Origin: Parcubacteria group bacterium
GTDB lineage: Bacteria; Patescibacteriota; Minisyncoccia; Moranbacterales; UBA2206
Direction: 5' to 3'
NCBI GenBank assembly: GCA_041659505.1
Contig: JBAZYF010000001.1
Location: 101,475 to 165,474, forward strand
DNA length: 64,000 nt
The notes below the pieces were generated by a model that was given only the letters and a program-made list of their open reading frames with translations, was not told where the DNA came from and did no database searches. Position 1 is the stretch's first letter; each line of letters begins with the position of its first letter. Positions 1,509 through 38,876 of this stretch are shown here, piece by piece. The position numbers and the translations under genes are program-made.

Positions 1509-3146
1509 TCACTCAACAGCAAGACCACTAGGAACACTGGGTGGAACCGTGTCCGCTCCTTGCAATTCATAGGCGCCGATATCATAGGCACCGCCTTGGG
1601 GACGGAGGAATGGTGAAGTGAATCCGGCACTGTTGATGGAAAGATTATAGGGACTGCCGAGGGTGGCGCCGGTGTTGATGGTGGGGCCTGATATGGTGGC
1701 GAAATAGTTTGTATTAGGAAGCATATTGGTGCCGTAGGTTCCATTAAAGCCGGTGGGAAGGGTGCCTCCGGTAAAGTTGGGGTCGGTGGTTTGGGCGGAT
1801 GCTTCCCAGGTGAGGACGCCGGCGCGATTATAACTCGTTCCACTACTGATGTGCGTGTCCGATAAACCAGAAGATCGATACACTAAATTGTTCGAGTGTG
1901 TCATAACATTATACTGATCGATAACCGGAATAAGATCATCGCCATAAACAATATTGTTCCGGAAATTGACTTCTGGTTCTCCGGTGTTTACACCAAAAAA
2001 TCCAATTGCGACAACGGCCTTAAAGTTTGTATTTTCATTCCCGGTTGAATAAATTGTATTATTATAGACATTAAAAACACTGCCCGTGTAATCATACCCG
2101 CCAGCAAGAGCAAACTCTGCTCCGTTTCCATTAGCATTCGTGATGCCATTATTGTAGATCAAGTTATTATAAAATGAAGCTGTTTCTGACAGACCTTGGA
2201 CATTAGTAATTGCAACGCCGTATAAAACATTTCCGCTGATAAGATTATTTCTAGCGATAAAATTATTCGGCGCCCCATTTTCCCCTTCCGGAGAAGTTCT
2301 GACAACTATTCCATAACCATTATTATTGATAAGCGTCGAGTATTCAACAGTAACATTGTCAACGTCATTGGCCATTTCCAGTCCACAGCCAGCTCCCAAT
2401 GCAGAACCGTTGTCCCGAGATACGCAATTCCTGATAAGCACACCGTCTATCTTGTTGCCGGGATAACCCCACGGAGCATACATGGCGATTCCTTCATGAT
2501 TGTTATTATGAAAGCTGGAGTTGAGAATTGATAAGTTGCTAGTAACTATGCCGGGGTTAGCCGTAGATATGACGTTTATGCCATAACCCCAATGTCCAGT
2601 GACGTTTGAATCTCCCGTATCCATAATATCGTGTACATCCACATTGTCGATCATGATGTTGGTTATATTCTCTGTGGCACTATTTCCAATCAAAATTCCT
2701 GAATTCCAATAATCATTCCCGTCCAGTTCAAATCCTCTGAATATCGTATTGCTAGTCGAGAGATCAACCATGCCATATGCGCCATTCGAATGATCTCCAA
2801 TGGCCTCAAATTTGGCTCTGGTTCCACTACCATAAGTTTCACCGTCATAGGTCACATTAGCTATGCCTATAGCTAAGACTCGTGATCCAGTTGGAGCAGC
2901 CCAGATATCTTGCGATCGGAAATAGACCGTGTCTCCATTGGCTAAAGTTACTGCTCCTGACCAGTTCGGCATTCCAGGGCAATGCGCCCAAGCATTTGCA
3001 TCATCTAGTCCAGAGAGAGCATCATTACCTCCGTTTTTGACATAGTAGGTGGCGGCACTAGCTTTAGCACTCATGCCAAAAATTGCAATAAACAAAATTG
3101 CTAGGAAAAAGATTTTTATTTTTGGATTTTTGATTTTGAGATTCAT
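1509..3146 (-). CDS. Secreted right-handed parallel beta-helix protein, array paralog P1 (545 aa), DUF1565-like.
   Basis: Signal peptide MNLKIKNPKIKIFFLAILFIAIFGMSAKASA followed by ATYYVKNGGND. The middle is Asn-rich and beta-helix-like (NN, YNN, FRNN motifs). The conserved C-terminal module is ...TWEASAQTTDPNFTGGTLPTGFNGTYG...GAYDIGAYELQGADTVPPSVPSGLAVE-stop. Confidence 0.85.
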   Translation of the reverse strand: MNLKIKNPKIKIFFLAILFIAIFGMSAKASAATYYVKNGGNDALSGLDDANAWAHCPGMPNWSGAVTLANGDTVYFRSQDIWAAPTGSRVLAIGIANVTYDGETYGSGTRAKFEAIGDHSNGAYGMVDLSTSNTIFRGFELDGNDYWNSGILIGNSATENITNIMIDNVDVHDIMDTGDSNVTGHWGYGINVISTANPGIVTSNLSILNSSFHNNNHEGIAMYAPWGYPGNKIDGVLIRNCVSRDNGSALGAGCGLEMANDVDNVTVEYSTLINNNGYGIVVRTSPEGENGAPNNFIARNNLISGNVLYGVAITNVQGLSETASFYNNLIYNNGITNANGNGAEFALAGGYDYTGSVFNVYNNTIYSTGNENTNFKAVVAIGFFGVNTGEPEVNFRNNIVYGDDLIPVIDQYNVMTHSNNLVYRSSGLSDTHISSGTSYNRAGVLTWEASAQTTDPNFTGGTLPTGFNGTYGTNMLPNTNYFATISGPTINTGATLGSPYNLSINSAGFTSPFLRPQGGAYDIGAYELQGADTVPPSVPSGLAVE

Positions 3147-3159
3147 TAGAAATTTTAAA

Positions 3160-4911
3160 TTATTCCACCGCTAGTCCGCTTGGCATATTCGGTGGAATCG
3201 CGTCAGATCCATGATATTCATAAGCACCAATGCTTGGAGGATTATTTATGGATTGTCCTAAATAATCCGTTGCCAGTCCCACATCGATTCCTGTCCATTT
3301 TGCGGGGGATGGAGCCGTTAGATTATAATCACCACCAGAAAAATTAAATAATAGAGGGTCAGAAACAGAACTATTAGCATCATACCCCAATGTGTTCCAT
3401 TGTAAAAATGTTTTACTTCCCCCATCATCTTCGATGGCCCATTCAGATGTGCCCCTATTAACATTGCTGGCCGGAAAGTACAAATTATAATTAATCACCG
3501 AGTTACTAACTGACCCTAAATACACAAGCCAATTTAAATTAGGGAGATTGTCGCTAACTACGATATTATTTTCAATGATATAGCTATCTAATTGGCCTAT
3601 TGAATATATGCCTATCCGACTGTCTGTTATGATCGTGTTATTATATATATAATTTTCTCCTCCTGGCGTAGCAATGGGAAAAATACTTAGATTACTAGTC
3701 CAACCATCAGAATTGCCGCCGTACAAAATATTGTAGTAAATTTTGTTATTATAAAAGGACGAGGCAAGTTGTTCAGGTGCTAATTGAATGGTATTTTGCA
3801 AAGTGTTGATATAATTTCTATAGATATTATTATTCGACCCATCGTGACAGGAACCGACATAATGAACAAATCCCCGGCACATCCCAGTAATATTATTTTC
3901 ATATACACTTGAGTTGTTTAAAGCTTGCGTCCCGATGCCTTCCGTATCTGTCCCACCTGACCAGCCCCAATATGTATAGGCGAAATCAATGTCATAATCA
4001 TTTCCGTATGTTCTCCAGATATAGGGGGTATTTTTGGCCTGAGAGCAATGAGTTATCGCATTAGATGCGATAGTTGCTCCCATAAAAGCACCCGCGTCAC
4101 CTTGAGTAGCAGTGTTAGCAGTTCCAAGCTCTATGCTATTTTGGACATAGCTAAAATTATTATCCGTGATACTAATTCCCGTGGATATGGCATTGTTGGT
4201 AAAAATCTGTACGCCTTGTATGATATCATCGAAATCAGAATTAGTAACTAGGATGTAATCATTATGAGAACCAGCAATGTTGGCAGTATAGACGCCATTG
4301 CCATATCTTCTAAAAGACAATCCATCAATAGTTATATAGCTATGAGAACCTAAGTTTATACCATACAAACGAGTATACTGAATAATGTGATCAGCCGGTA
4401 TCCCACTGGTTGGTTTATAGTAATTTTTCCATCCGCTTTCCCAGTATACATTTCCATAATTACATTCTGTGTCTCTGCCATATCTTAGTGGCACATCATC
4501 CTCATAGATTGCATTATTAGTCACCGCCGTTGTGCTATATACTCCAGCCACCGGATCATTGGCAGTCCACTCGGTAATTGTGACACTCCCATCCAGAATA
4601 GCCTTGCCTGTCCCATAAGAATTAATAATGATAGGATTCCCCTCTGTGCCAGAAGCGCCAACAGTAACTGTTCCATAATATGTCGTCCCACCTTTCTGCG
4701 AATAAGTATTGCCCGCCACCCACGATACTTCCGCCCAAGTTTTAAAAGGGCCACTAGCTCCGCAAGTTATAGTTGTACCATTGCCACTGCTTCCACAAGT
4801 TGGATCGATGTAGACCGTGGCAGCACTAGCCTTAGCACCAAAGCTAAAAAGGCCACAAAATATTAATAGACTTAGAAAAATTAATTTAGAATTTAGTAAT
4901 TTAGACTTCAT
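3160..4911 (-). CDS. Secreted beta-helix protein, array paralog P2 (583 aa), divergent subfamily.
   Basis: It has the same signal peptide style (…FGAKASA then ATVYIDPTCGSSGNGTT…PFKTWAEV). The cap and middle are different. It shares only the GAYEYHG motif and the terminal tail IPPNMPSGLAVE with the others. Confidence 0.8.
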   Translation of the reverse strand: MKSKLLNSKLIFLSLLIFCGLFSFGAKASAATVYIDPTCGSSGNGTTITCGASGPFKTWAEVSWVAGNTYSQKGGTTYYGTVTVGASGTEGNPIIINSYGTGKAILDGSVTITEWTANDPVAGVYSTTAVTNNAIYEDDVPLRYGRDTECNYGNVYWESGWKNYYKPTSGIPADHIIQYTRLYGINLGSHSYITIDGLSFRRYGNGVYTANIAGSHNDYILVTNSDFDDIIQGVQIFTNNAISTGISITDNNFSYVQNSIELGTANTATQGDAGAFMGATIASNAITHCSQAKNTPYIWRTYGNDYDIDFAYTYWGWSGGTDTEGIGTQALNNSSVYENNITGMCRGFVHYVGSCHDGSNNNIYRNYINTLQNTIQLAPEQLASSFYNNKIYYNILYGGNSDGWTSNLSIFPIATPGGENYIYNNTIITDSRIGIYSIGQLDSYIIENNIVVSDNLPNLNWLVYLGSVSNSVINYNLYFPASNVNRGTSEWAIEDDGGSKTFLQWNTLGYDANSSVSDPLLFNFSGGDYNLTAPSPAKWTGIDVGLATDYLGQSINNPPSIGAYEYHGSDAIPPNMPSGLAVE

Positions 4912-4938
4912 TTTAAATTTAGAATTTAGACTTTAAAA

Positions 4939-6438
4939 TTATTCTACTGCTAGTCCTGATGGAACTGTTGGTGGAGTTGTATCTGTTCCTTGGTATTCAT
5001 AGGCGCCGATGTCATAAGCTCCGACTGGACGTAAGAATGGTGAAGAGAGTCCGGCGCTGTTGATGGAAAGATTATAGGGACTGCCGAGGGTGGCGCCGGT
5101 GTTGATGGTGGGGCCTGATGTGGTGGCGAAATAGTTTGTATTAGGAAGCATATTGGTGCCGTAGGTTCCATTAAAGCCGGTGGGAAGGGTGCCTCCGGTA
5201 AAGTTGGGGTCGGTGGTTTGGGCGGTGGGTTCCCAGGTGAGGACATCGGATCGGTTATAATTTATATTTGTCACAACATGATCGGCAATATCACTTGAAG
5301 ATCTAAAAATTAGATTATTGGAATGAGTAAGTAGACCCAGATAATCATAAACTGCTTGATAGTTGTCAGAGCATGCAATATTATTCTTGAAATTTATTAT
5401 GGGAGTACCAATGGCCCAACGCAGATTAATAGCACTATAGACATCTGCAAAGAGTGTATTATTATAAAAATTCAAAACTGTTCCCGTTAGATCACCACCC
5501 AGATAAATTTCGTTTGAACCATTACTGTAAATAAGATTATTGTTAATACCACCAGTAACAGCCACACCAGCACTATCAACATCATACACGGTTATGCCAT
5601 GATCGCCATTATTATATATAATATTATATTTTATATCTAAACCGGTAGGGCTTCCATTTTCGCCAATAATAGATATCCCATTTGAGGCTGAATTGTAAAA
5701 AGATGAAAACTCTACTATAACATTTCTCGCGTCATTTTTAATCGCCAACCCAGATCCCCACGTTGATCCATCTTGCCCAGAGTCATGGCCCGAACAATTA
5801 CGTAATATTATATTGCTTTCAATGCCGCTTCCTCCACTATATACAACAAACGCCTCGTGTCCAGTATTATATACATTCGTATTAGATATTAAAACATCGC
5901 TAACGGCCGTACTAGGCTGTGCCGACACTCTGACACCATAAACATAATTACCCTCTGGGCAAATATTATCATGCACCTGACAATCATCAATTATTATATT
6001 TGATTTGTCAGCACCATAAATAGTAATACCATCAGTAATTTGGCTGTTCATATCGACATTAAAACTCCTAACCGTAACATTACTCTGCCCGATAAAAATC
6101 ACATAAGCTAGATTGCCAGTGGCTTTAAATGTAGCCCTCGTCCCGCTTCCATATATAGATCCATCATAAATTACACCTGCAGTAGCTACTAAAACAGGCG
6201 TCGTTGCGCTTGTCCACACATCTTGGCTACGAAAATATACAGTATCCCCGCTCGTCACTGTTGCCTCCACTTTGTCAATCGTCTCCCAAGCATTAGCATC
6301 ATCCAACCCGGAAAGAGAATCATTGCCTCCGTTTTTGACATAATAGGTGGCGGCGCTGGCTTTGGCACTCACGCCGAAAATTGCTAAAAATAAAATTGTT
6401 AGGAAAAAGATTTTTAGTTTTAAGTTTTGGTTTGGCAT
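4939..6438 (-). CDS. Secreted beta-helix protein, array paralog P3 (499 aa).
   Basis: N-terminus MPNQNLKLKIFFLTILFLAIFGVSAKASA then ATYYVKNGGNDSLSGLDDANAWETI. The C-terminal module is near-identical to P1 at the nucleotide level (about 170 nt). Confidence 0.85.
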   Translation of the reverse strand: MPNQNLKLKIFFLTILFLAIFGVSAKASAATYYVKNGGNDSLSGLDDANAWETIDKVEATVTSGDTVYFRSQDVWTSATTPVLVATAGVIYDGSIYGSGTRATFKATGNLAYVIFIGQSNVTVRSFNVDMNSQITDGITIYGADKSNIIIDDCQVHDNICPEGNYVYGVRVSAQPSTAVSDVLISNTNVYNTGHEAFVVYSGGSGIESNIILRNCSGHDSGQDGSTWGSGLAIKNDARNVIVEFSSFYNSASNGISIIGENGSPTGLDIKYNIIYNNGDHGITVYDVDSAGVAVTGGINNNLIYSNGSNEIYLGGDLTGTVLNFYNNTLFADVYSAINLRWAIGTPIINFKNNIACSDNYQAVYDYLGLLTHSNNLIFRSSSDIADHVVTNINYNRSDVLTWEPTAQTTDPNFTGGTLPTGFNGTYGTNMLPNTNYFATTSGPTINTGATLGSPYNLSINSAGLSSPFLRPVGAYDIGAYEYQGTDTTPPTVPSGLAVE

Positions 6439-6441
6439 TTT

Positions 6442-8046
6442 TTAATCTACACTTAGTCCACTCGGCGCATTCGGCGCAGTTATATCCGCTCCTTGATATT
6501 CATAAGCCCCAATATCATAAGCTCCAGCTAATCTAGCAATTGGATTGTCAGTACCGGCCGTGTTGATGTTGCCGTCATAGGGACTGCCAAGTGTGGCACC
6601 GTTGTTGATGGTGGGGCCGGATGTGGTGGCGAAATAATTGGTGTTGGGAAGCATGTCTGTGCCGTAGATGCCAGTGAAACCGGTAGGAAGCGTGCCGCCG
6701 TTAAATTGCGGGTCGGTGTTTTGGGCGGTGGGTTCCCAGGTATTGACCGCAGTTGAGGTATAGTCGGTAGTTTCCGTTTTAACTAACGTTCGACCAAGAG
6801 TTGTGGAATAAAATAAATTATTAGAATGATTCACAACTGGCGCTCCATCGATGAAAAGCTCTGTAAAATTACCGGCATACAAGATATTATTCTTAAAATT
6901 TACTTCTGCACCTTCTAGATTAGCCCACAAGCCTAAATTAACAAGACGAGCTGAATTCGTACAGGCCTTAGTCAGGGAATAAAAAGTATTATTGTAAATA
7001 TCAAAGACAGTGCCAGCCCCAAAAGCATCATCCGTGGCATTGCTACTTATGACAGAAAACTCAGCACAGTCCCCAATGCTCGGTTGACCATTTTCGTAAA
7101 GTAAGTTTCCATAGAAAGCACCTGACATAGTAAGTGCAGATGGGCTATATATGCGGATACCCGTATCAGCATTATTGTATATAACATTATATCTAACAAT
7201 CATGTTTATCGGGGCGGAAAAAACATTTTCCCCGCCTTCATAATCAGGCGAGGTTCTTACCAAAATTCCATCATGAATATTATCATACGCCCTGTTATAT
7301 TCGAGCGTAACATTTTTTGAATCATTAACGATAGAGAAACCTTCTAAATTATTGTGCGATATGCAATTTCTTACTAAAACAGTTTCGTTTTGGTTACCTG
7401 GCGTATTCCAACTAGCATAAACATCTATCCCGGTAGCATAGAGACAATCATATGTTTCAGTGTTTAATATTTGCACATTACTAGTTTTATGTCCTCCACT
7501 ATTGGAGACGATAATTCCATATCTGCCTGTATTGTGCACCGTACAATTATCAACGGTAATACCTGAGATGTCTTTGTCAGCAACATAGCCTATCCCGATA
7601 CCATCAAGCGAAGTTTGATCATTAGAATCTATATCAAACCCTCTAAAAATAATGTTACTTTCATTTAGGTCGGCAGTACTCCAATTGTTATACGAAGAGA
7701 CAGCATTTGATTTAAATTTAGCTCTTGTTCCTAATCCATAAGTAGCTCCGTCATAAATAACACCGCTAGTAGCATGCAACACGACTCCGGAAGTAATACT
7801 GGATTCCCACACATCTTGCGAACGAAAATAAACCATATCCCCGCTGGTCACTGTCGCCTCTACTTTAGCAATCGTCTCCCAAGCATTCGCATCATCCAAT
7901 CCCGAAAGACTATCATTGCCTCCGTTTTTGACGTAATAGGTGGCGGCACTGGCACTTGTACTCAAAACGAAAATCCCACTAAAGATAATTAGGCCAAAAA
8001 GGATTAAATTAAAATTTAGGAATCTAGTTTTCATTTCAAAATTCAA
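6442..8046 (-). CDS. Secreted beta-helix protein, array paralog P4 (534 aa).
   Basis: Same conserved cap. The C-terminal variant is ...DGNINTAGTDNPIARLAGAYDIGAYEYQGADITAPNAPSGLSVD, shared with P5. It is only 3 nt from the P3 start. Confidence 0.85.
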   Translation of the reverse strand: MNFEMKTRFLNFNLILFGLIIFSGIFVLSTSASAATYYVKNGGNDSLSGLDDANAWETIAKVEATVTSGDMVYFRSQDVWESSITSGVVLHATSGVIYDGATYGLGTRAKFKSNAVSSYNNWSTADLNESNIIFRGFDIDSNDQTSLDGIGIGYVADKDISGITVDNCTVHNTGRYGIIVSNSGGHKTSNVQILNTETYDCLYATGIDVYASWNTPGNQNETVLVRNCISHNNLEGFSIVNDSKNVTLEYNRAYDNIHDGILVRTSPDYEGGENVFSAPINMIVRYNVIYNNADTGIRIYSPSALTMSGAFYGNLLYENGQPSIGDCAEFSVISSNATDDAFGAGTVFDIYNNTFYSLTKACTNSARLVNLGLWANLEGAEVNFKNNILYAGNFTELFIDGAPVVNHSNNLFYSTTLGRTLVKTETTDYTSTAVNTWEPTAQNTDPQFNGGTLPTGFTGIYGTDMLPNTNYFATTSGPTINNGATLGSPYDGNINTAGTDNPIARLAGAYDIGAYEYQGADITAPNAPSGLSVD

Positions 8047-8062
8047 ATTAAAAAATTTTAAA

Positions 8063-9937
8063 TTATTCTACGGCCAGTCCGCTCGGCGCTCCGGGCGCGG
8101 TTGTATCCGCTCCTTGATATTCATAGGCGCCAATATCATAAGCTCCAGCTAATCTAGCAATTGGATTGTCAGTACCGGCCGTGTTGATGTTGCCGTCATA
8201 GGGACTGCCAAGTGTGGCACCGTTGTTGAGGGCATTGCCGGAAGTTATTTTGAAATAGTCGGTGTTGGGCACTATGTTGGCTCCATAAGTGCCGGAGAAT
8301 CCAGTTGGCAAAGTTCCGCCGGTAAATTGTGGGTCGGTGTTTTGGGCGGTGGGTTCCCAGACTGTAGTGACTGATCGATCATAGGTACTAGCCACCCACT
8401 TCTCACCAGCTACCGTATTCACATCTGAATACATATTGCCACCTTCATCGCGATAGACTTTGAGATAATTTGCTGAAACTTCATAGATATAAAATAAAGA
8501 ACCATTGAGATCGGGTGAGCTAAATCCTGTCCATTTCACAAAATTACCAACACTAAACAAACTGGTCCAATCACCTCCGCCAACTTTGGTAAAATACATA
8601 TAATCCCCCACGATGGATACCGTAACCACAGTCGAAGAAATTGGGATACTATCGTATGCAGCATCCCTAATGACCGCCAAAGAAGAACCGTCAGAACGAT
8701 AAATTAAATTGCTAGAATGAGTGAGCCAATGATGGCGATCATCTACGGCATAGCTATCGGAAGTATAAATTATATTATTTTTAAAATTAAATACTGGCGT
8801 TCCAAAAATATTTCCTCCGTATTCTGCAACAGCCATACCCGTGCCATAGCTACCATCATTATAAATAGTGTTATTATAAAAACTAAAAACGCTTGATGAG
8901 TAGTTAGCATTAGACACTGATATGCCAGGAGAGTTGTTATAAATAATATTTCCATAAAATGACCCACTCAAAATCTGACTATAATTATCTTGGATGAGAA
9001 TTCCTGAATCATTGTCATAAAGTTCATTATATCTGACAAGCATATTATTAGGTCCGCCATTACCCACCCCTCCATCGGGCGAAGTTCGTATGCTGATACC
9101 ATCTGCTTGTCCAAACAAGGCACAATATTCAACCGTCACATTATCAGAATTATTATTTATTGCTATGCCCATCCCAACACCCGTTCCAAGGACATCGGTC
9201 CCATTATCATGTACCTTACAATTCCTAATTAGCACCCTGTCAACACCATTTCCGGTGGAATTCCAACTGGGATATATAGCAATACCCTCATGATAATTAC
9301 TATAAACTTCGCTGTCTAGAATGCTGATGTCTGTGTTGATTATACCATCAGTCCGAGAACTTATTAATATTCCATACATCCATTCAGCTGATAAATTAGC
9401 TGGGTTTCCTAAATCAAAGACCTTGCAATTTTCAATAATAATATTTGAAATAGGTGCAATCAGACTTGCACTATAGCCAACAGATATTCCGGTCGTATTT
9501 ATTTGATTTCCATCAATGGAAAAATTATTAAATGAAACATCGCTTACGTTAATTTCAACCAACTCATTGGTAGCATCTCCAGTAAATCCAGTGCTGGCCT
9601 GCAATACAGCTCTTGTGCCACTGCCATAAGCAGAGCCATCGTAAGTTACGCCTTCTGTAGCTCTTAATAGTGGTACCACAGTTGATGAAGATGTCCACGT
9701 ATCCTGACTGCGAAAATAAACCGTATCCCCACTCGTCACGGAAGATTGAACTTTAGCAATCGTCTCCCAAGCATTGGCATCATCCAACCCCGAAAGGCTA
9801 TCATTGCCTCCGTTTTTGACGTAGTAGGTAGAGGCACTAGCTTTTGCACTCACACCAAAAACTGCACAAAATATAATTACCAGGAAAAAGATTTTTAGTT
9901 TTGAGTTTTGGATTTTGAGCTTCATTTTAAATTTCAA
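8063..9937 (-). CDS. Secreted beta-helix protein, array paralog P5 (624 aa), with an extra ~100 aa insert before the C-terminal module.
   Basis: Conserved cap. The insert YMYFTKVGGGDWTSLF...KWTGFSSPDLN is homologous to an insert in P8. The tail is APGAPSGLAVE. Confidence 0.85.
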   Translation of the reverse strand: MKFKMKLKIQNSKLKIFFLVIIFCAVFGVSAKASASTYYVKNGGNDSLSGLDDANAWETIAKVQSSVTSGDTVYFRSQDTWTSSSTVVPLLRATEGVTYDGSAYGSGTRAVLQASTGFTGDATNELVEINVSDVSFNNFSIDGNQINTTGISVGYSASLIAPISNIIIENCKVFDLGNPANLSAEWMYGILISSRTDGIINTDISILDSEVYSNYHEGIAIYPSWNSTGNGVDRVLIRNCKVHDNGTDVLGTGVGMGIAINNNSDNVTVEYCALFGQADGISIRTSPDGGVGNGGPNNMLVRYNELYDNDSGILIQDNYSQILSGSFYGNIIYNNSPGISVSNANYSSSVFSFYNNTIYNDGSYGTGMAVAEYGGNIFGTPVFNFKNNIIYTSDSYAVDDRHHWLTHSSNLIYRSDGSSLAVIRDAAYDSIPISSTVVTVSIVGDYMYFTKVGGGDWTSLFSVGNFVKWTGFSSPDLNGSLFYIYEVSANYLKVYRDEGGNMYSDVNTVAGEKWVASTYDRSVTTVWEPTAQNTDPQFTGGTLPTGFSGTYGANIVPNTDYFKITSGNALNNGATLGSPYDGNINTAGTDNPIARLAGAYDIGAYEYQGADTTAPGAPSGLAVE

Positions 9938-9945
9938 ATTGAAAA

Positions 9946-11538
9946 TTATTCCACCGCCAGTCCGCTCGGTGCCCCAGGTGCTGTTGTATCAGCTCCTTGG
10001 TATTCATAAGCCCCAATGTCATAAGCGCCGACTGGACGTAGAAAGGGAGAAGCTAATCCGGCACTATTGATGGAGCTATTGAAAGGACTGCCGAGGGTTG
10101 CGCCGGTATTGATAGTTGGCCCTGCGGTGGTGGCAAAATAATTAGTGTTGGGTAGCATATTTGATCCGTAGGTACCAGTAAATCCGGTGGGGAGGGTACC
10201 GCCGGTGAATTGCGGGTCGGTGTTTTGGGCGGTGGGTTCCCAATCGCCGATATTAGCACTTGTATATGTACTATTTTGAGTCCAAGCTAATGCACCCGCT
10301 GAAGGTCTGTAATAAATATTATTGGTATGTTGGGATGTTGTTAGTTGTGCGCCATAATCATAAAAACAACGAGCTGCCAAATCGCAATAATAAATATTAT
10401 TTCGGAACTCTATGCCGGAAGCATTACTACCTCCTTCATAAATTCCAGCGCAACCAAACATACTCGTGCTACCAGGAGAGTAAATTGTATTGTTATACAT
10501 CTTAATTGATTTGTCATGATAATCTATGCCACTCAATGCAATAGAAGCATCAATAAGTATATTGCCATAGAATGCGCCAGAACCATAAAAGTGAGGGAAG
10601 TCAAAATAACCGCTCGTAGAAAAACCAGTCCCCTGCATAAGATTATGCCTTATAATAAAATTATCCGGGTACTCATCTGGTCCGGTATAGTCTGGGCCGT
10701 AATTCAAAACAGCTATAGCTGAACCGCTTACAGTATTGTACTCAATGGTTATATTGTCCGAATCATTACCGATATCAATAGGATGAGTACTGCCACCAGC
10801 CTGCCCAACATCATACACGGTATTTCCTCGAACAAGCGCCATATTAACTCTATTGCCAGCGACACCCCAATTTGGATAAACAGCAATACCTTCATGCCCC
10901 GCTTCATGAACTATATTATTAGTCACCGTCACGTTGCTAGTTGTATGACTTCCGCGCGCTCCCACAAGAATTGCATAGTAGTAGGATGGATTAGGACTGT
11001 CTGTCGTGATGCCATTAATAATCTCACAATAATCCACAGTGATATCGGTAATGTCCCCCGACGGAGTTGGGCTAGTCCCGCCAATATACACACCACCGAG
11101 AGATAGCTCATTGCTATCAACCAAAAACCCCCTAAAAGTGACATTGCTTGTGTAAATTTGCACCACGCCATAACCAGCGACTCGGGACGTGGCTTGTAAT
11201 TTCGCTCTTGTTCCAGATCCGTATGTCGCCCCGTCATAAATCACCCCCTCCGTACAATTAAGCACGGGGTCTGCTCCTGTCCACGTATCCTGCGATCGAA
11301 AATACACAGTATCGCCACTCGTAGCAGAGGAGCTAACTTTGTCAATCGTCTCCCAAGCATTAGCATCATCCAACCCGGAAAGAGAATCATTGCCTCCGTT
11401 TTTGACATAATAGGTGGCGGCGCTGGCTTTGGCACTCAAGCCAAAAAAACCACAAAATATAATTACCAAAAAAATAATTTTGAATTTAAACTTGCTTGCC
11501 CCGGATGAGCAAAGCAATTTTTCGGAGTGTTTTTGCAT
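9946..11538 (-). CDS. Secreted beta-helix protein, array paralog P6. The ORF is open to 11607, but the start is most likely the Met of MQKHSEK... at 11538.
   Basis: ...KFKFKIIFLVIIFCGFFGLSAKASAATYYVKNGGNDSLSGLDDANAWETI... The conserved C-terminal module ends APGAPSGLAVE. The longer ORF would overlap the upstream ATPase stop at 11549. Confidence 0.8.
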   Translation of the reverse strand: MQKHSEKLLCSSGASKFKFKIIFLVIIFCGFFGLSAKASAATYYVKNGGNDSLSGLDDANAWETIDKVSSSATSGDTVYFRSQDTWTGADPVLNCTEGVIYDGATYGSGTRAKLQATSRVAGYGVVQIYTSNVTFRGFLVDSNELSLGGVYIGGTSPTPSGDITDITVDYCEIINGITTDSPNPSYYYAILVGARGSHTTSNVTVTNNIVHEAGHEGIAVYPNWGVAGNRVNMALVRGNTVYDVGQAGGSTHPIDIGNDSDNITIEYNTVSGSAIAVLNYGPDYTGPDEYPDNFIIRHNLMQGTGFSTSGYFDFPHFYGSGAFYGNILIDASIALSGIDYHDKSIKMYNNTIYSPGSTSMFGCAGIYEGGSNASGIEFRNNIYYCDLAARCFYDYGAQLTTSQHTNNIYYRPSAGALAWTQNSTYTSANIGDWEPTAQNTDPQFTGGTLPTGFTGTYGSNMLPNTNYFATTAGPTINTGATLGSPFNSSINSAGLASPFLRPVGAYDIGAYEYQGADTTAPGAPSGLAVE

Positions 11539-11548
11539 TTTTTTATTC

Positions 11549-12730
11549 TTACCGAATCTCCCCGCCCCAGATATAGTCGAAGAAGTTCGGCACAATCTGC
11601 CGACCAATCAGCCGGTACTTTTTCAGCCCGGCAGTCCGAGCTAAATTTTCCAGTTTCTTTTTGTCAGTTTCAATTGGTGTTTCTTTTACTTCCAATCCAA
11701 CTTTTTCATCAAGTACAAAATCAATCTCCCGACCGTTTTTGAGAGAATAATATTGCAACTTGCCCTGCTGGCGCAATTGATTGAAAATAGCATTTTCAAA
11801 TTTTGAACCGCCATTCAGATCCGCTAGGATTCCCGCCAGGCCATTGTCGCAAAAATAAATCTTTTGAGCTTTCACAATTTCTCGATCGAAACTTTTTGTA
11901 TAAATCGGGACTCTCTGGATTAAATAAGTTTTTTCGAAAAGATCCAAATAGCTGACTACTGTTGGACGAGAGAGATTGGAAAGACGTGCTAACTTGGAAT
12001 AATCCAGTTTTGTTCCAACGCGACCGGCTAACATTTTTAACAAATTATAGATATTCTGTTCGTTCCTAAAATCAGCCAAAAATTTAATGTCGATGTTGAG
12101 ATATGAGCTAATGATATCTCTAAGCAAATCCTTCTTTTCTTCCTCTGTATCGGCCAAAACCACTTCGGGAAAACCGCCAAATTCAACATAATTTTCATAG
12201 TAACTTCTTACTCGTTCATGCTCAATCGGATTGGCCTTTTTTTCCTGCCATTTCTCAGCTTTAAGATAGAAAACCTTATGAAAAACCAAATATTCTCCAA
12301 AATCCAAGGGATAGATTTCGAATATTTTTTTGCGCCCAGCCAGTGATTCACTGAAAAGATTTTTCAGATAATAGGAACTCGATCCGGTTACGATAAACTT
12401 CACATCAAAAGTATCGTATAAATATTTCAGAATACTAGCGATCGCTGGAAACATTTGAATTTCGTCTATTGCCAAATACATACGATCAGACATTGACAAC
12501 CCCTTGCTGGCAAGTTCCTTGAGAATGTTGTCATAATTTTTTTGATTAAACAGCGCCCGATTATCCACTCGCTCCAAATCGAGATAGAGTTTATTTTTTG
12601 AAGGAATGTCTTCCAGCAATTGATTGAGCAGTGTGGTCTTTCCTGTTCGGCGCATACCGGTAATCACGGTTATTTGCCTTGATTTGAGATGTTTTTTCAG
12701 TTCGGGATAAATTTTGCGCTCTAAAAACAT
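11549..12730 (-). CDS. AAA+ superfamily ATPase (COG1373/DUF4143 type) embedded in the beta-helix array.
   Basis: Walker A GMRRTGKTT, Walker B LAIDEIQ, and a sensor segment IVTGSSSY. The C-terminal half is of DUF4143 type. This is one of two such ATPases in the window; the other is at 33885-35126. Confidence 0.8.
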   Translation of the reverse strand: MFLERKIYPELKKHLKSRQITVITGMRRTGKTTLLNQLLEDIPSKNKLYLDLERVDNRALFNQKNYDNILKELASKGLSMSDRMYLAIDEIQMFPAIASILKYLYDTFDVKFIVTGSSSYYLKNLFSESLAGRKKIFEIYPLDFGEYLVFHKVFYLKAEKWQEKKANPIEHERVRSYYENYVEFGGFPEVVLADTEEEKKDLLRDIISSYLNIDIKFLADFRNEQNIYNLLKMLAGRVGTKLDYSKLARLSNLSRPTVVSYLDLFEKTYLIQRVPIYTKSFDREIVKAQKIYFCDNGLAGILADLNGGSKFENAIFNQLRQQGKLQYYSLKNGREIDFVLDEKVGLEVKETPIETDKKKLENLARTAGLKKYRLIGRQIVPNFFDYIWGGEIR

Positions 12731-12767
12731 AGATTTTTACATTAATAATTACTAAACTATATATATA

Positions 12768-12796
12768 ATATTACATTTAGTATCAATATTTGTCAA
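12768..12796 (-). promoter_or_regulatory. Sigma70-like promoter for the embedded ATPase. On the minus strand the -35 is TTGACA (12796-12791), the spacer is 17 nt, and the -10 is TAATAT (12773-12768).
   Basis: Hexamers were read on the reverse strand. The -10 lies ~38 nt upstream of the ATG at 12730. A 13 bp palindrome TGCTACTGTAGCA sits adjacent at 12797-12809. Confidence 0.45.
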
Positions 12797-12827
12797 CTGC
12801 TACTGTAGCATGGCTATTTTAAGCCTT

Positions 12828-14480
12828 TTATTCTACAGACAGTCCGCTAGGCGAAGCTGGCGGAGTTATCTCCGTGCCTTGATATTCATAGGCGCCGATA
12901 TCATATGTGCCAACTGGACGTAGAAAGGAAGTCTCCAGTCCGGCGCTGTTGATGGAACTGTTGTAGGGACTCCCAAGGGTGGCGCCAGTATCGAGAGCGT
13001 TGCCAGTTGTAATTTTAAAATAATCTGTATTAGGAAGCATATCGGTACCGTAGGTGCCGGTGAATCCGGTGGGGAGGGTGCCGCCAGTGAATGCGGGGTC
13101 GGTGGTTTGGGCGGTGGGTTCCCAAGTCAAAACGCCTGAACGGTTATAATTCACAGTGCTTGCAAATGTGGTAACGTGATTATCACTTGAACCGGATGAC
13201 CGAAAAATTAGATTGTTTGAATGTGTCAGGAAATTACCAGGGCAAGTAAAATCATCACTCCCACGACATTCTGCGATTCCTTCCCAGTTACTCGTGTAAA
13301 TCGCGTTATTTTTAAAATTAAACACAGGGATTGGAGTTCCTGCGATATCGCAGGAAGTATACTCGCAAGCCACAACTGGTTGCTTATACACGCACGGATT
13401 GTTAGTGCTGTAGATAGTATTATTATAATAACTGAATACTGATCCGCTATAATCACCATTAGGAATATCAATATCATGACATGCACCACTGCCACTCCAT
13501 CCAACACCAGTATCAAAGAATAAATTACCATAATATGCACCTGTCGAACCTTCCAGTCCCGCATCCCCGGTGCGATAAGACAACCCGAATCTATTATTAT
13601 AAATCATATTATAGCGCACAATTAGATTTGATACTGATTCGGAAGTGTCATAATTAGATGTTCCAACTATAATGCCCGTACCATTATCATGTATATTCGA
13701 GTACTCAATTGTAATATTATCTGATCTGTTCATGATATAAAAACCTTGGTCAAATCCAGAAGCATAAGTGATACCATCGCCACGACCAACATCGTATACT
13801 TCGCAATTTCTGACTGTTATTCTATTAATCCTACAGCCTGTCCTGTTCCAAGAATTATATAATGCAAACCCCTCATGACCCGTGCTGTACACCTTTGTAT
13901 CAGTAATTAATACATCGCTAACAACAACATCATTCGCGCTGATCCCTCCGACATAAAAACCATAAGCCCAATGGCCGGTAGGGACTAAGCTATTATGCAC
14001 ATCACAAGAATCAACAACTATATTACCAAAACTCACAGGAGCTCCCTGTCCGATGGCAAAAATGCATAATATCTGATCATTCCCATCTACATCAAATCCA
14101 CGAAAAACAACATTAGATACGTTTATTTTAACAACCGCCATATTATCAGCGGATGAGCTTGTTGCTCTCAGCGTGGCTTTTGCGCCAGAGCCATATTCAT
14201 TGCCAATATATGTTACCCCGGACACCGCAGTTAAAACAGTTGCTGCCCCTGTCCACGTATCCTGCGATCGAAAATACACAGTATCGCCACTCGTAGCAGA
14301 AGAGCTAACTTTAGCAATCGTCGCCCAAGCATTGGCATCATCCAATCCAGAAAAAGAATCATTACCTCCGTTTTTGACATAGTAGGTGGCAGCCTCAGAA
14401 TTCTTGACCATGCCAAAGAAGCTGCAAAATATAATTAAGTTAAAAAAGATTGCATTAAAAATTTTAAATTTAATTTTCAT
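12828..14480 (-). CDS. Secreted beta-helix protein, array paralog P7 (550 aa).
   Basis: MKIKFKIFNAIFFNLIIFCSFFGMVKNSEA then ATYYVKNGGNDSFSGLDDANAWATI. The C-terminal module ends TPPASPSGLSVE. Confidence 0.85.
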   Translation of the reverse strand: MKIKFKIFNAIFFNLIIFCSFFGMVKNSEAATYYVKNGGNDSFSGLDDANAWATIAKVSSSATSGDTVYFRSQDTWTGAATVLTAVSGVTYIGNEYGSGAKATLRATSSSADNMAVVKINVSNVVFRGFDVDGNDQILCIFAIGQGAPVSFGNIVVDSCDVHNSLVPTGHWAYGFYVGGISANDVVVSDVLITDTKVYSTGHEGFALYNSWNRTGCRINRITVRNCEVYDVGRGDGITYASGFDQGFYIMNRSDNITIEYSNIHDNGTGIIVGTSNYDTSESVSNLIVRYNMIYNNRFGLSYRTGDAGLEGSTGAYYGNLFFDTGVGWSGSGACHDIDIPNGDYSGSVFSYYNNTIYSTNNPCVYKQPVVACEYTSCDIAGTPIPVFNFKNNAIYTSNWEGIAECRGSDDFTCPGNFLTHSNNLIFRSSGSSDNHVTTFASTVNYNRSGVLTWEPTAQTTDPAFTGGTLPTGFTGTYGTDMLPNTDYFKITTGNALDTGATLGSPYNSSINSAGLETSFLRPVGTYDIGAYEYQGTEITPPASPSGLSVE

Positions 14481-14507
14481 TTCAAATTAAAAATTTTAAA
14501 TTTCAAA

Positions 14508-16424
14508 TTATTCCACTGCCAGTCCACCAGGCACACTGGGTGGAACCGTGTCCGCTCCTTGCAATTCATAGGCTCCAATATCATAGGCTCCGCCTTGGGG
14601 ACGCAAGAATGGCGAAGCCAGTCCGGCGCTGTTGATGGAGCTGTTAAATGGACTGCCGAGAGTCGCTCCAGTATCAATGGTTGGTCCTGTGGTGGTGGCG
14701 AAATAATTAGTGTTGGGTAGCAGATTGATGCCGTAGGTGCCGGTGAAACCGGTGGGAAGGGTGCCGACGGTGAACTCAGGGTCGGTGTTTTGGGCGGTTG
14801 GTTCCCAGGTAGCGACGGCTGAACGATTAAAATTAGTCATCGTCCCCTTTACTCCAGTCACAATATTAATATCCGTATAGGGTATTGAAGTTTTTGCAAC
14901 TCTCAGCTGATTTTCCGTCACCGCATCAACCATAAACACAATATTATTAAGTGCCGGCGTGGTAAAGCCAGACCATTTAAAAAAGTTATAATGTGTAAAA
15001 ATAGTTGTCCAGTCCGTACCGCCTGATTTGGTAAAATATGTATATGTTGCATCGTTAGAAACAGTTACTTCCGTCTCTGGAATAACCTCCGCGTAGCTCA
15101 TATTAGAAATGGCAGCCCCAGTCGATCCTGATGCTCTGTAAATAAGATTATTGGAGTGAGCTGTAATTTTAGTAAGATGATCATAAACTCCAATAGCATT
15201 ATTACTATAAATAATATTATTTTTAAAATTAACTATAGGGTAGTTCGCCATAGCGTTAGAGTATTGGAAAAAAGACACAATCCCATAACTTGTGGCTGAT
15301 ACGGTATTGTAAATAGTGTTGTTATAAATATCAAACGTACTTGCTTCGTATTCGCCATTACTAACTTCCAAATCGATGCCGGCATTATTGTAAAATATGT
15401 TGCTATAAATATTAGCATTAAGTGAGTGCACCAGGCCTATCTGCGTAGAAAAACCACTTCCCGTATTTTCATAAATCAGATTATTTCTAATTATCAAATT
15501 ATCTGGTGATCCGGCCGCAGCTTCCGGCGATGTCCGCTCCCAGATTCCCGTCATGCCATTATCACGGATACTATTAAATTCAACAGTGACATTATCTGCA
15601 TTGTTAGCGACAAGCACTCCTACTCCGCCATTGCCATATGTGCCGTTAGCATTGGTATAGGTCGGCCTAGTACCGCAATCATGAACATTATTTCCCCGCA
15701 CTGACACACCATCAACTCTCGGGTTCGTTCTTACCCATGCTGTGTAAATAGCAACACCTTCATGATAGGTATAGGCAACTTCATTATTGATTATATTAAA
15801 ATTAGTATGTGTGATATTATCATCGCCACCAGCAGCATAAAGTCCATATTGCCAGTTAGGTTGCCAAGTTTCATTAAGAATATTAGGATCAGTAATGCTG
15901 TGATTACCTCCGACAAGATTCGGATTGCCTGTGTGATGAATATAACAGTCCTTAACTGTAATATTGTCGATGGCCTTTCCGGCTCCATATCCAACATAAA
16001 GGCCACCACCGGTCCCCATTGAACTACCATCTACCTCAAATCCCTTGAAAACCACATCACTTTCATTGATAACGACTAAGCGATGCGTGTCCGCCTCAAG
16101 GCCAGTTATACCCTTTAATTCTGCCTTGACGCCAGCGGATGGCCACTCATTTCCAATATAAGAAACCCCTCTCTCGGCAGTCAAAAATGGGGCCGTTGAA
16201 AATTCCCAAATATCGCCGGAATTAAAATACACCATGTCCCCGCTAGTGACTGTCAATTGAACTTTGGCAATCGTCTCCCAAGCGCTGGCATCATCCAATC
16301 CAGAAAGACTATCATTGCCTCCGTTTTTGACGTAGTAAGTCGCAGCCTCTGAATTTCTTGCCATTCCAAAGATTCCGCAAAACAAAATTAGAAAGACGAA
16401 AATTTTTAATTTAGTTATTTTCAT
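14508..16424 (-). CDS. Secreted beta-helix protein, array paralog P8 (638 aa), with the same insert domain as P5.
   Basis: MKITKLKIFVFLILFCGIFGMARNSEA then ATYYVKNGGNDSLSGLDDASAWETI. The last ~80 nt are near-identical to P1 (...RPQGGAYDIGAYELQGADTVPPSVPGGLAVE). Confidence 0.85.
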   Translation of the reverse strand: MKITKLKIFVFLILFCGIFGMARNSEAATYYVKNGGNDSLSGLDDASAWETIAKVQLTVTSGDMVYFNSGDIWEFSTAPFLTAERGVSYIGNEWPSAGVKAELKGITGLEADTHRLVVINESDVVFKGFEVDGSSMGTGGGLYVGYGAGKAIDNITVKDCYIHHTGNPNLVGGNHSITDPNILNETWQPNWQYGLYAAGGDDNITHTNFNIINNEVAYTYHEGVAIYTAWVRTNPRVDGVSVRGNNVHDCGTRPTYTNANGTYGNGGVGVLVANNADNVTVEFNSIRDNGMTGIWERTSPEAAAGSPDNLIIRNNLIYENTGSGFSTQIGLVHSLNANIYSNIFYNNAGIDLEVSNGEYEASTFDIYNNTIYNTVSATSYGIVSFFQYSNAMANYPIVNFKNNIIYSNNAIGVYDHLTKITAHSNNLIYRASGSTGAAISNMSYAEVIPETEVTVSNDATYTYFTKSGGTDWTTIFTHYNFFKWSGFTTPALNNIVFMVDAVTENQLRVAKTSIPYTDINIVTGVKGTMTNFNRSAVATWEPTAQNTDPEFTVGTLPTGFTGTYGINLLPNTNYFATTTGPTIDTGATLGSPFNSSINSAGLASPFLRPQGGAYDIGAYELQGADTVPPSVPGGLAVE

Positions 16425-23891: not shown

Positions 23892-25262
23892 TTATTCCAT
23901 AAAACTCTTCCCTCGTAATTTTTTATGATACGTAATTGCAAAACGATGGGCTTCGTCGCGGACGCGTTCGATGATTTCGTCGGATATTTCCGGCACACTA
24001 CCGAAAGAATAGCGGTCGAGTTTTTTACGGGTCGGACCTTTGGCGACAGCCAAAAGCGGGATCTCCAGATGAAAATTTTTGAGCACACGCCGCACCGCTG
24101 TGAGATGACCTTGCCCGCCGTCTAAAATTATAAGATCTGGCATCGGCCAATTATTGCCAAATCTGCGCCCCAAAACTTCCGCCATCGAAGCCGTATCATT
24201 TGCGCCTTCGATGGTTTTTATTTTAAATTTGCGATACTGACTCTTGTTTGGGCCTATTTCCCCATTCGCATTATCAAACACCACCATAGACCCGACGCTC
24301 GATTTTCCGGAAATATTAGAAATGTCATAACCCTCAATGCGAAATGATTTTGCGTCGCCCTTGTAGAGACGAGGCACTGCCTCGTCTTGGCATTGTTGGT
24401 TTGCGCATTGACGTTCATTGCTCTCAAGACGTGGCAATGCCACGTCTCTACCTTCTGATATCAACGCAATATCCCGAATATGCTGCAACGCAAAAATCGC
24501 ATTGCGCATTTTCCCCGCTTTTTCAAATTCCTGTTTCTCGCTTAATTCTGACATTTCTTTTTTCATTTTCGCAAGCAATGTTTTTTTCTTGCCTTCCAAA
24601 ATCATCCGTATGCCACGGATATTTTTCATATAATCCTCTTTAGAAATCGCCCCAGCATATGGCCCCGGACAAAGCCCGATCTGAAAATCCAAGCAACCAC
24701 TTTCCGTTTTTTGCGCCTTGGAATGATAGGGAAAAATTTTCCTAAGTATTTTCAGCGCAATTTCAATATTTTTTTTGGAAATATATGGACCATAGATTTT
24801 ACTAAATTTGGATTTTATATCGACATCTTGATCCATTTCTCTTTTTCGCAAAAACAATATCCGCGGAAAATCTTCTTTTGTAATGGCAACATAAGAAAAT
24901 GACTTATCATCTTTTCCATCCACATTAAACTTCGGCTGCCACTTTTTGATCAGTCCCTGCTCTAAAATATATGCCTCCAAAACCGTCTCGGTTTTTCGAA
25001 CTTCAATATCCGCCACTTGAGAAATAAACATTTCAATCGGTCGCGATCCCATTCGTAAATTCGTAGGGGTTTGATTCATCAAACCCTCGGCTATTCCGGG
25101 TTCAATAAATTGAACCCCTACAAAATACGAACCAACCCGGTCTTTAAGTGATGTCGCTTTGCCCACATACAAAATTTTCCCAGAATCATTTCTAAAAATA
25201 TAGACACCGGGAGAGGTGGGCAGACTTTTCAGTTTTTTGGCGATTTTGGTTGACATTTGCAT
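23892..25262 (-). CDS. uvrC: Excinuclease ABC subunit C (UvrC). This is a short form lacking the C-terminal HhH region and carrying an in-frame palindromic-element insertion.
   Basis: GIY-YIG domain (GVYIFRNDSGKILYVGKATSLKDRVGSYF), UVR-like segment (EKQEFEKAGKMRNAIFALQ), and the RNase H-like endonuclease domain (YDISNISG...PDLIILDGGQGHL...RDEAHRFAITYH). 456 aa. Confidence 0.9.
   Translation of the reverse strand: MQMSTKIAKKLKSLPTSPGVYIFRNDSGKILYVGKATSLKDRVGSYFVGVQFIEPGIAEGLMNQTPTNLRMGSRPIEMFISQVADIEVRKTETVLEAYILEQGLIKKWQPKFNVDGKDDKSFSYVAITKEDFPRILFLRKREMDQDVDIKSKFSKIYGPYISKKNIEIALKILRKIFPYHSKAQKTESGCLDFQIGLCPGPYAGAISKEDYMKNIRGIRMILEGKKKTLLAKMKKEMSELSEKQEFEKAGKMRNAIFALQHIRDIALISEGRDVALPRLESNERQCANQQCQDEAVPRLYKGDAKSFRIEGYDISNISGKSSVGSMVVFDNANGEIGPNKSQYRKFKIKTIEGANDTASMAEVLGRRFGNNWPMPDLIILDGGQGHLTAVRRVLKNFHLEIPLLAVAKGPTRKKLDRYSFGSVPEISDEIIERVRDEAHRFAITYHKKLRGKSFME
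24363..24450. repeat. Palindromic element (family 4) inserted in frame inside uvrC. It has two perfect hairpins, GACGAGGCACTGCCTCGTC and GACGTGGCAATGCCACGTC, flanked by TAGAGA...TCTCTA.
   Basis: Read directly from the sequence. It encodes ...RDVALPRLESNERQCANQQCQDEAVPRLYK... in the UvrC linker. A second copy lies intergenic at 41158-41226. Confidence 0.75.
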
Positions 25263-26082: not shown

Positions 26083-26143
26083 AATCAGTGAAATCACTTT
26101 AATCAGTGAAAATCAGTGGTTCTGATGTTTAGTGGTTCAGGCA
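26083..26143. repeat. CACTGATT-rich repeat (family 6) immediately 3' of uvrA2. It contains AATCAGTGGTTCTGAT.
   Basis: AAAATCAGTGAAATCACTTTAATCAGTGAAAATCAGTGGTTCTGATGTTTAGTGGTTCAGG. A related element with terminal inverted repeats is at 39925-40026. Confidence 0.6.

Positions 26144-36815: not shown

Positions 36816-38876
<2,061 letters not shown>

Follow-up and report, generated by a model that had tools for sequence, protein, structure and literature searches.

Why do eight clustered genes for secreted proteins of a Parcubacteria-group bacterium all end in the same short motif? The genes form a minus-strand array that opens a 64-kb stretch of DNA (the window, by which we mean the whole stretch analysed), directly downstream of GroEL. 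Their products are identical to proteins of a Parcubacteria-group metagenome-assembled genome (MAG) with locus tags WC848_. In this report, we describe evidence that the terminal motif, or tail, corresponds by sequence to the inter-domain linker and strand A of one fibronectin type III (FN3) subfamily, detached from the rest of the domain. We further propose, with confidence a little short of even, that the tail serves as a docking strand for small adaptors whose own FN3 domain lacks strand A.

All eight proteins end in D/E-x-x-[PA]-P-x-x-P-[SG]-G-L-[AS]-V-[ED]-stop, and (D)IGAYE[YL][QH]G precedes the tail in every case; just 18 residues come after GAYE[YL]. The tail ends are VPPSVPSGLAVE, IPPNMPSGLAVE, TPPTVPSGLAVE, TAPNAPSGLSVD, TAPGAPSGLAVE (twice), TPPASPSGLSVE and VPPSVPGGLAVE. 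Each tail abuts its stop codon (seven TAA, one TGA), and positions 1509-1560, for example, hold the stop and final 16 codons of paralog 1. The original prediction for this locus had described a conserved C-terminal tail on all eight paralogs after DIGAYE, and the ends of the open reading frames (ORFs) bear this out. The genes and their tails are as follows, with tail scores taken from a position-specific scoring matrix (PSSM) described below.

Paralog 1: 1509..3146, minus strand, 545 amino acids (aa); signal peptide, right-handed beta-helix, DIGAYELQG and tail; PF13229 at 27 bits; identical to P0001 of the Parcubacteria MAG. Tail 1: 1509..1553, minus strand, DTVPPSVPSGLAVE and TGA, 19.7 bits.
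Paralog 2: 3160..4911, minus strand, 583 aa; divergent beta-helix body with 29% identity to paralog 1; identical to P0352; no Pfam match. Tail 2: 3160..3204, minus strand, DAIPPNMPSGLAVE and TAA, 17.0 bits.
Paralog 3: 4939..6438, minus strand, 499 aa; the paralog modelled with AlphaFold2. Tail 3: 4939..4983, minus strand, DTTPPTVPSGLAVE and TAA, 20.1 bits.
Paralog 4: 6442..8046, minus strand, ORF of 534 aa; the deposited protein, P0021, has 530 aa. Tail 4: 6442..6486, minus strand, DITAPNAPSGLSVD and TAA, 15.4 bits.
Paralog 5: 8063..9937, minus strand, 624 aa; additional insert of about 90 aa. Tail 5: 8063..8107, minus strand, DTTAPGAPSGLAVE and TAA, 19.4 bits.
Paralog 6: 9946..11607, minus strand, ORF of 553 aa from TTG. 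Tail 6: 9946..9990, minus strand, DTTAPGAPSGLAVE and TAA, 19.4 bits.
Paralog 7: 12828..14480, minus strand, 550 aa; identical to P0002. Tail 7: 12828..12872, minus strand, EITPPASPSGLSVE and TAA, 17.1 bits.
Paralog 8: 14508..16424, minus strand, 638 aa; insert of about 90 aa, as in paralog 5; PF13229 at 59.5 bits. Tail 8: 14508..14552, minus strand, DTVPPSVPGGLAVE and TAA, 20.0 bits.

To what extent is this motif maintained as protein sequence? Codons were compared among 14 tail proteins of the one MAG, namely, the eight of the window and six from a second contig (locus L005), giving 91 pairs. With residues counted back from the stop, the conserved positions behave as follows.

P-10: invariant; 4 codons; 72 synonymous and 0 nonsynonymous pairs of 91.
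P-7: invariant; 4 codons; 67 synonymous and 0 nonsynonymous pairs of 91.
G-5: invariant; 2 codons; 24 synonymous and 0 nonsynonymous pairs of 91.
L-4: present in 13 of 14, with a single Phe; 6 codons; 65 synonymous and 13 nonsynonymous pairs of 91.
V-2: invariant; 3 codons; 59 synonymous and 0 nonsynonymous pairs of 91.

Because residues are invariant despite plentiful synonymous change, the tail is under purifying selection at the protein level, and its conservation does not reflect DNA identity, gene conversion or an overlapping regulatory site. An alternative genetic code was also ruled out: seven of the eight stops are TAA, and the signal peptide of the next gene begins 3-27 nucleotides (nt) downstream. 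The tail DNA was likewise rejected as a ribosome-binding site or promoter of the next gene; its codons differ freely between genes, and the tail is kept even in the last array gene, with the nearest co-directional gene at least about 170 nt downstream.

The original prediction also held that the tail is conserved where everything else varies. This overstates the case, although in the divergent paralog 2 the tail is the segment best conserved relative to the other paralogs (68%). In the eight-paralog alignment, the 12-aa tail segment ranks only 25th of 347 in conservation, and in seven paralogs other parts are conserved as well as the tail or better, namely, the DIGAYEYQG block, the N-terminal block NGGNDSLSGLDD and roughly 100 residues of the C-terminus. 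In the AlphaFold2 model of paralog 3, the last 20 or so residues have no secondary structure and a predicted local distance difference test (pLDDT) score of 67-69, as against 94-99 in the body.

The relation of the tail to FN3 is seen when it is set beside a small FN3-dockerin protein, P0121, which is encoded in L005. A phmmer search with P0121 against 1.84 billion representatives gave 5,485 matches, many of which carry 10-28 tandem FN3 repeats. We aligned 367 internal repeats of this FN3 subfamily on the tryptophan of strand B (position 0), and the consensus upstream of it reads D(-23)-T-T-[PA]-P-a-a-P(-16)-t-G-L-a-[AV]-[TE](-10)-a-G-D-G-s-V-t-L-s-W(0). The motif P-x-G/N-L-x-V/A lies at exactly -16 in 147 of the 367 repeats. 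On the strength of this in-register match, we assign the tail to positions -23 to -10, the inter-domain linker and strand A of a bacterial subfamily of FN3 (PF00041) with the signature W-x-aN-x-E-x-DL-x-GY-x-[IV]-YY. A PSSM built on 336 unique internal 14-mers gives the window tails 15.4-20.1 bits, compared with a median of 11.0 for true internal repeats and 5.1 for the best of 4,254 14-mers from the protein bodies, and shuffled tails attain the lowest real score in 6e-5 of 16,000 trials.

The tail and the parent domain differ in two respects. FN3 is a seven-strand sandwich (A, B, C, C', E, F, G) of about 85-100 aa, whereas the tail comprises 14 residues and then a stop, with no B-G sandwich. 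Also, V-2 is invariant in the 14 tails of the MAG, whereas internal FN3 repeats favor Ala there. In a fused relative, P0334, the sequence ...DLGCYEY-SDSGVDY-PPAAPTGLSAT-GYNGSVGLDW... leads on to three full FN3 domains; this arrangement appears to show the ancestral architecture. The identity of the motif as an FN3 A strand is not recognized in the original prediction, and we found no description of such a tail, or of a split FN3, in the literature searched.

The tail behaves as an autonomous C-terminal module, and the protein bodies that bear it are of at least six unrelated kinds. We counted 26 instances of the pattern P..P.G[LVFI].V. in the window and 47 further loci (285,602 aa), a few of them on duplicate contigs; all abut the stop, and none is internal. 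A 512-aa protein of L005 has only its signal peptide and its tail in common with the window paralogs. In candidate phyla radiation (CPR) loci, the ending DTT[PA]P-x-x-P-x-G-[LV]-x-[VI]-x-stop is found on Laminin_G_3 proteins, on a protein with fn3 and RGI-lyase matches, on three proteins of about 375 aa, on two of about 275 aa and on one of 592 aa. Similar tails end a 282-aa neighbor in locus L001 and a 580-aa protein in locus L030. The original prediction was to be given up if homologues in related genomes lacked the tail, and it suggested that other proteins be surveyed for the motif; the tail is present in homologues from other genomes, so that objection fails, and the motif is seen on the unrelated bodies just listed.

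Among homologues of the array proteins, the site of the tail is a hot spot of alternative C-terminal modules. We sorted 120 homologues of paralog 3, from many metagenomes, by the sequence that follows GAYEY. A spacer and P-x-[GN..]-[LFIM]-x-[VILF]-x(0-4)-stop, as in APPTGLRVE, AAPTGLAVQ or AAPKNLRVVE, end 36 of them; the spacer is Pro-rich, spans 14-36 aa and consists in some of PVVTP repeats. The others end in ...GFKIQGVTIR (18), ...GAVFSGISF (6) or ...PRIKISKLK (6), have no tail, with at most five residues (6), bear longer extensions (9, one of them a C-terminal domain of the type IX secretion system (T9SS), PF18962, in P0108), are unclassified (37) or have no recognizable GAYE motif (2). 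The family of paralog 2 exhibits the same mix of classes. The other short tails at this place (P0030, P0038, P0041 and others) end in ...SGGSAGSGFKIQGVTIR-stop, ...NTGAVFSGISF-stop or ...VPRIKISKLK-stop in the same numbers of homologues, and have a strand-like look. Beta-helix homologues outside the array (in L001, L002 and L003) sit in exopolysaccharide clusters with glycosyltransferases and a Wzy_C polymerase, and the cluster in L002 additionally holds a polysaccharide deacetylase and exosortase EpsH. This context suggests that these enzymes act on the exopolysaccharide of the cell itself or of a neighbor. A genome scan with a 24-sequence alignment returned mostly Desulfobacterota and Bacteroidales MAGs, with the source MAG not among them.

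If the tail is strand A of an FN3 domain, where is the remainder of the domain? The family of P0121 comprises 87 clusters, with proteins of 165-180 aa whose annotated sources are Parcubacteria, Moranbacteria and Portnoybacteria. In 80 of the 87 members, a signal peptide ending in A-x-A is followed directly by G[ST]Ax[LV]xW-NAN-x-E-x-DL-x-GYKIYY. Judged from this alignment, the mature adaptor would begin at position -6, the start of strand B, and the Pfam fn3 alignment to the adaptors opens at profile position 14/15. The AlphaFold2 model of P0121 (pLDDT 89.9) has six strands (34-39, 48-56, 73-78, 83-89, 94-103 and 116-119) followed by two dockerin helices; strand one is at the first mature residue, and the A strand is absent. 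Many members of the family match the type I dockerin, PF00404; P0121 itself, at 19.8 bits, is below threshold and has two dockerin-type helices. Small membrane-tethered FN3 proteins (125-139 aa) are encoded beside the adaptors, and in these a transmembrane or signal segment runs almost straight into ...ATLSW. In terms of sequence, the tail (-23 to -10) and the adaptor (-6 to 0) thus amount to one FN3 domain that is split in the A-B turn. Representative genes of the two kinds are the following.

L005:15091-15624: FN3-dockerin gene of family P0121-P0203, encoding a signal peptide, FN3 and dockerin.
L005:19035-19442: small FN3 protein of 135 aa.

Many of the large multi-FN3 proteins (P0208-P0351) have a similar beginning. 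In these, the FN3 domain that comes first behind the signal peptide is without strand A (...A|G-x-x-x-V-x-W), whereas the internal repeats have it. This A-less first domain may be a general receptor edge or a tolerated truncation.

The tail genes and the adaptor genes are neighbors. We examined seven independent FN3-dockerin loci, five of which have tail genes immediately upstream in the same orientation. There are six such genes in L005, a locus on another contig of the MAG to which the window belongs, one in L039/L040, four in L041, three in L045 and two in L048/L049. The order of the cassette is tail proteins, small FN3 protein, FN3-dockerin protein, scaffold and a transmembrane protein of 360-415 aa. 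L005, L039, L041 and L044 have homologous scaffolds and homologous forms (360-410 aa) of the last protein, and the small FN3 protein is common to L005, L041, L043, L044 and L045. A cohesin domain (PF00963) scores 38.2 bits in the L039 scaffold and is recorded also in L043, L045 and L048; the N-terminus of the L005 scaffold has 35% identity to the cohesin region of L039 (E = 9e-23), and the L048 scaffold bears a PG_binding_1 domain besides. Because the gene next to the FN3-dockerin gene encodes a cohesin scaffold, the loci appear to specify a cohesin-dockerin system, found in Parcubacteria, Moranbacteria and Portnoybacteria, with an FN3-dockerin family that extends across the CPR. The transmembrane-anchored protein always follows the cohesin scaffold and has weak matches to WD40 or beta-propeller-like domains; its genes are given here.

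L005:17725-18948: transmembrane-anchored, beta-propeller-like protein.
L039:12528-13622: the same.
L041:12018-13094: the same.
L044:5023-6201: the same.

We therefore consider docking to be the most likely role of the tail, at slightly under even chances: a free FN3 linker and strand A on secreted glycan-active enzymes would work as a docking strand. A natural split-FN3 system in the CPR, with strand A as a tag on enzymes and the rest of the domain on shared dockerin or membrane-anchored adaptors, to be reconstituted in trans, seems to us comparably plausible. We favor docking because the tail has the identity of an FN3 strand A, the adaptors are A-less in a complementary manner, the two kinds of genes are adjacent, the tail is modular, terminal, under selection and unstructured in the model, and a fused form exists. 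From these observations we infer the physical pairing of tail and FN3 and the anchoring at the surface. In the mechanism that we propose, the enzyme would be exported by Sec, and its signal peptide would be cleaved. The flexible, Pro-rich tail would then insert beside the exposed strand B of an A-less FN3, complementing the beta-sandwich in trans. The acceptor FN3 would be the mature N-terminus of a small FN3-dockerin adaptor or of a small membrane-tethered FN3 protein. The dockerin of the adaptor would bind the cohesin scaffold, which in one locus (L048) has a peptidoglycan-binding domain. As an outcome, many different enzymes could be held non-covalently at the cell surface through one shared adaptor.

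Several findings weigh against this proposal. Two of the seven loci have no tail gene: in L043, none lies within 10 kb, and L044 is near a contig end, so that only 1.8 kb are available upstream, holding an alcohol dehydrogenase and a small FN3 gene. The window itself has no adaptor, even by a pattern search for FN3 proteins, nor is one found just past its left edge, and the link between tail and adaptor therefore comes from another contig of the same MAG. Similar tails end Desulfobacterota-type homologues in exopolysaccharide loci with no adaptor within 10 kb. Joined together, tail and adaptor still leave about three residues of the A-B turn unaccounted for. A-less FN3 domains at the N-terminus are common in large proteins (30 of 144 representatives), and an FN3 of such a type may fold stably and function with no A strand at all. 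Finally, in chimeras of tail and mature adaptor scored with the Pfam fn3 profile, the score rose by 0.5-2.4 bits with real tails and by 0.2-2.9 bits with shuffled ones, a comparison in which the generic profile is powerless over its first 13 positions.

Other explanations must be considered alongside docking. The tail could be an evolutionary leftover of enzyme-FN3(-dockerin) fusions that lost the body of the FN3 domain, with linker and strand A persisting as a harmless or spacer-like stub. The junction shared with the fused P0334 fits such a history, as do the lack of predicted structure and the variety of modules after GAYEY (a T9SS domain in P0108, other tails, or none in 6 of 120). We nevertheless judge it unlikely: a stub should decay, yet despite abundant synonymous change four positions do not vary at all and a fifth is the same in 13 of 14 proteins. 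The distance from Leu to the stop is also fixed, the pattern is never internal, the same stub recurs across different genomes on at least six bodies with no relation to one another, and tails cluster beside A-less adaptors in five of seven loci. A rather unlikely variant of docking is that the tail binds another partner in the cassette, either the cohesin scaffold or the beta-propeller-like protein, or that it mediates self-association by strand exchange. Scaffold and beta-propeller-like genes accompany tail genes as regularly as FN3 genes do, and the eight paralogs share a conserved mature N-terminus. However, neither partner has a sequence logic to match the tail, whereas the tail and the adaptor add up, in register, to one FN3. 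Head-to-tail polymers were rejected, because none of the proteins found to start with an A-less FN3 ends in a tail.

The original prediction had offered a signal for a sorting enzyme and a docking peptide as alternatives, and the evidence of FN3 identity and of gene adjacency to A-less FN3-dockerin adaptors and cohesin scaffolds favors the latter. As a recognition tag, P-x-G-L-x-V-x-COOH would be read by a peptidase, transpeptidase or modifying enzyme that cleaves it or attaches it covalently to the envelope. Its strictly C-terminal position and fixed length would suit such a role. So would a weak match to choice-of-anchor Q (NCBIfam NF041518), in which paralogs 1, 3 and 8 reach 19.2, 13.7 and 19.2 bits against a cut-off of 25 bits and which stops at DIGAYE, just before the tail, where sorting signals usually follow; the NCBIfam search of the window paralogs gave nothing else. 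In L041, an S41/PDZ C-terminal processing peptidase is encoded at a distance of about 6 kb from the cassette, in L048 a sortase at about 4 kb, and L002 has an exosortase, EpsH. Yet no sortase, exosortase or peptidase recurs across loci, and the window has no sortase, exosortase or candidate processing peptidase. The tail also lacks the transmembrane helix or basic anchor of known sortase, exosortase, archaeosortase and rhombosortase signals, and its motif is fully accounted for as FN3 linker and A strand. The sorting-enzyme signal thus finds no support here, and we hold a tag of this kind to be quite improbable. Least probable by far is an intramolecular element, with the tail packed back against the catalytic domain of its own protein to form a cap or an edge strand. 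The tail does directly follow the C-terminal cap motif DIGAYEY of the beta-helix family, but the AlphaFold2 model of paralog 3 has no strand in its low-scoring last residues, in homologues a Pro-rich spacer of 14-36 aa separates the strand from GAYEY, and the same tail is found on unrelated folds.

The enzymes that carry the tails in the window are of one kind. The array products all begin with a signal peptide (...SAKASA|ATYYV...) and contain a right-handed beta-helix, with PF13229 above its Pfam cut-off in paralogs 1, 3, 4 and 8. The model of paralog 3 is a beta-helix with mean pLDDT 93.8, and its closest solved folds by Foldseek are GH136 lacto-N-biosidases, the PL9 pectate lyase, AlgE/AlgG alginate epimerases and phage tailspikes (E down to 2e-9 for the GH136, PL9 and AlgE/AlgG epimerase matches). 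By fold, therefore, the array proteins are predicted to be secreted glycan-active enzymes. No window paralog has a match to Dockerin_1 or to fn3 in Pfam. Successive genes are spaced by 3-27 nt except in the stretch where an AAA_14/DUF4143 ATPase gene (11549-12730) interrupts the array, its sole interruption. The long form of paralog 6 that starts at TTG overlaps this gene by 59 nt, and the true start is therefore likely an internal Met that gives a protein of 530 aa (P0007).

The signal peptide (...KLKIFFL-ILF--IFG-SAKASAAT...) is conserved across the window paralogs (1509-16424) and also stands on an unrelated mature body at L005:2793-4331, with 57% identity over 37 aa. Signal peptide and tail seem to travel together as modules. 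The insert common to paralogs 5 and 8 (8063-9937 and 14508-16424), and not found in the other six, reads ...VTVS--Y-YFTK-GG-DWT--F---F-KW-GF--P-LN... and lies at alignment columns of about 620-720; a fragment of it ends homologue P0098.

The remainder of the window consists of housekeeping genes. Its left flank, seen in short duplicate contigs, has a response regulator and a PilB-like ATPase, with no cassette. The features that we noted around the array are the following.

L047:1663-2865: PilB/GspE-type secretion ATPase just past the left edge, after a histidine kinase/response regulator pair that flanks the array.
11549-12730 and 33885-35204: two AAA_14/DUF4143 ATPase genes; the same family is present near a homologue in L002.
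19641-22448 and 26129-29281: two UvrA paralogs (935 and 1050 aa).
36813-38876: UvrB.
23892-25262: UvrC.
61315-62463: L,D-transpeptidase (YkuD) with Big_5 domains; the sole transpeptidase-type enzyme of the window, 45 kb from the array and with no evident link to it.
62467-63483: GH5/GH42-like glycosidase, adjoining the YkuD gene.

CPR bacteria such as Parcubacteria are tiny, mostly uncultured and host-dependent. To our knowledge, little has been described of how they display enzymes and adhesins on their surfaces, and we know of no anchoring routes for such proteins. If the docking proposal is true, it would represent a new natural principle of protein coupling, between the donor-strand complementation of pili and cohesin-dockerin binding, and a two-step, cellulosome-like surface assembly in which enzymes are loaded on cohesin scaffolds of the cell wall. 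It would explain why the same 14 terminal residues are found on dozens of unrelated secreted proteins, and the rule P-x-x-P-x-G-[LV]-x-V-x-stop would predict surface-displayed glycan-active enzymes of the CPR. The peptide and domain would also form a compact natural pair, usable as a tag in protein engineering. Even on a weaker reading, annotation gains: C-termini called "hypothetical" and N-termini of the type AGSAxLxW would be two halves of one domain type.

How does the arrangement compare with known systems? The tail occupies the same extreme C-terminal position as sorting signals do, just after a DIGAYE block that resembles choice-of-anchor Q. The original prediction was correct that it is none of the familiar ones. 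Sortase substrates have an LPXTG-like motif, a hydrophobic helix and a basic tail, and PEP-CTERM, PGF-CTERM and GlyGly-CTERM signals combine a signature motif, a transmembrane helix and an Arg/Lys cluster; the window tails (...PSGLAVE-stop) have none of these elements. The T9SS C-terminal domain (PF18962) is a beta-sandwich of about 80-100 aa that Pfam does not find in the window paralogs, although homologue P0108 carries it at the same place.

Docking would have closer parallels elsewhere. Donor-strand complementation builds extracellular fibers, including chaperone-usher pili, type V pili, TasA and archaeal threads, from Ig-like folds that are made without one edge strand and receive the matching terminal strand of another polypeptide. 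The adaptors lack an edge strand in the same way. However, a pilin misses strand G, whereas here strand A of FN3 is missing, the donor is on the enzymes and the acceptor on the adaptor. We also see no sign of polymerization, given that proteins that start with an A-less FN3 do not end in tails, and no chaperone or usher; the pairing itself is proposed. As in cellulosome-type cohesin-dockerin systems, a dockerin protein and a cohesin scaffold are encoded together (in the adaptor loci, not in the window), and the cargo is secreted and predicted to be glycan-active. Cellulosomal cargo enzymes bear the dockerin themselves, whereas the enzymes described here have none and would need the FN3-dockerin adaptor as an extra step that has not been described. 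Split beta-sandwich tags, such as SpyTag/SpyCatcher, derived from CnaB2, and the fragment complementation of FN3 monobodies, likewise use a peptide of one terminal strand to rebuild an Ig-like domain in trans. Such tags were built in the laboratory, and SpyTag is covalent, whereas the pair proposed here would be natural, presumably non-covalent and many-to-one.

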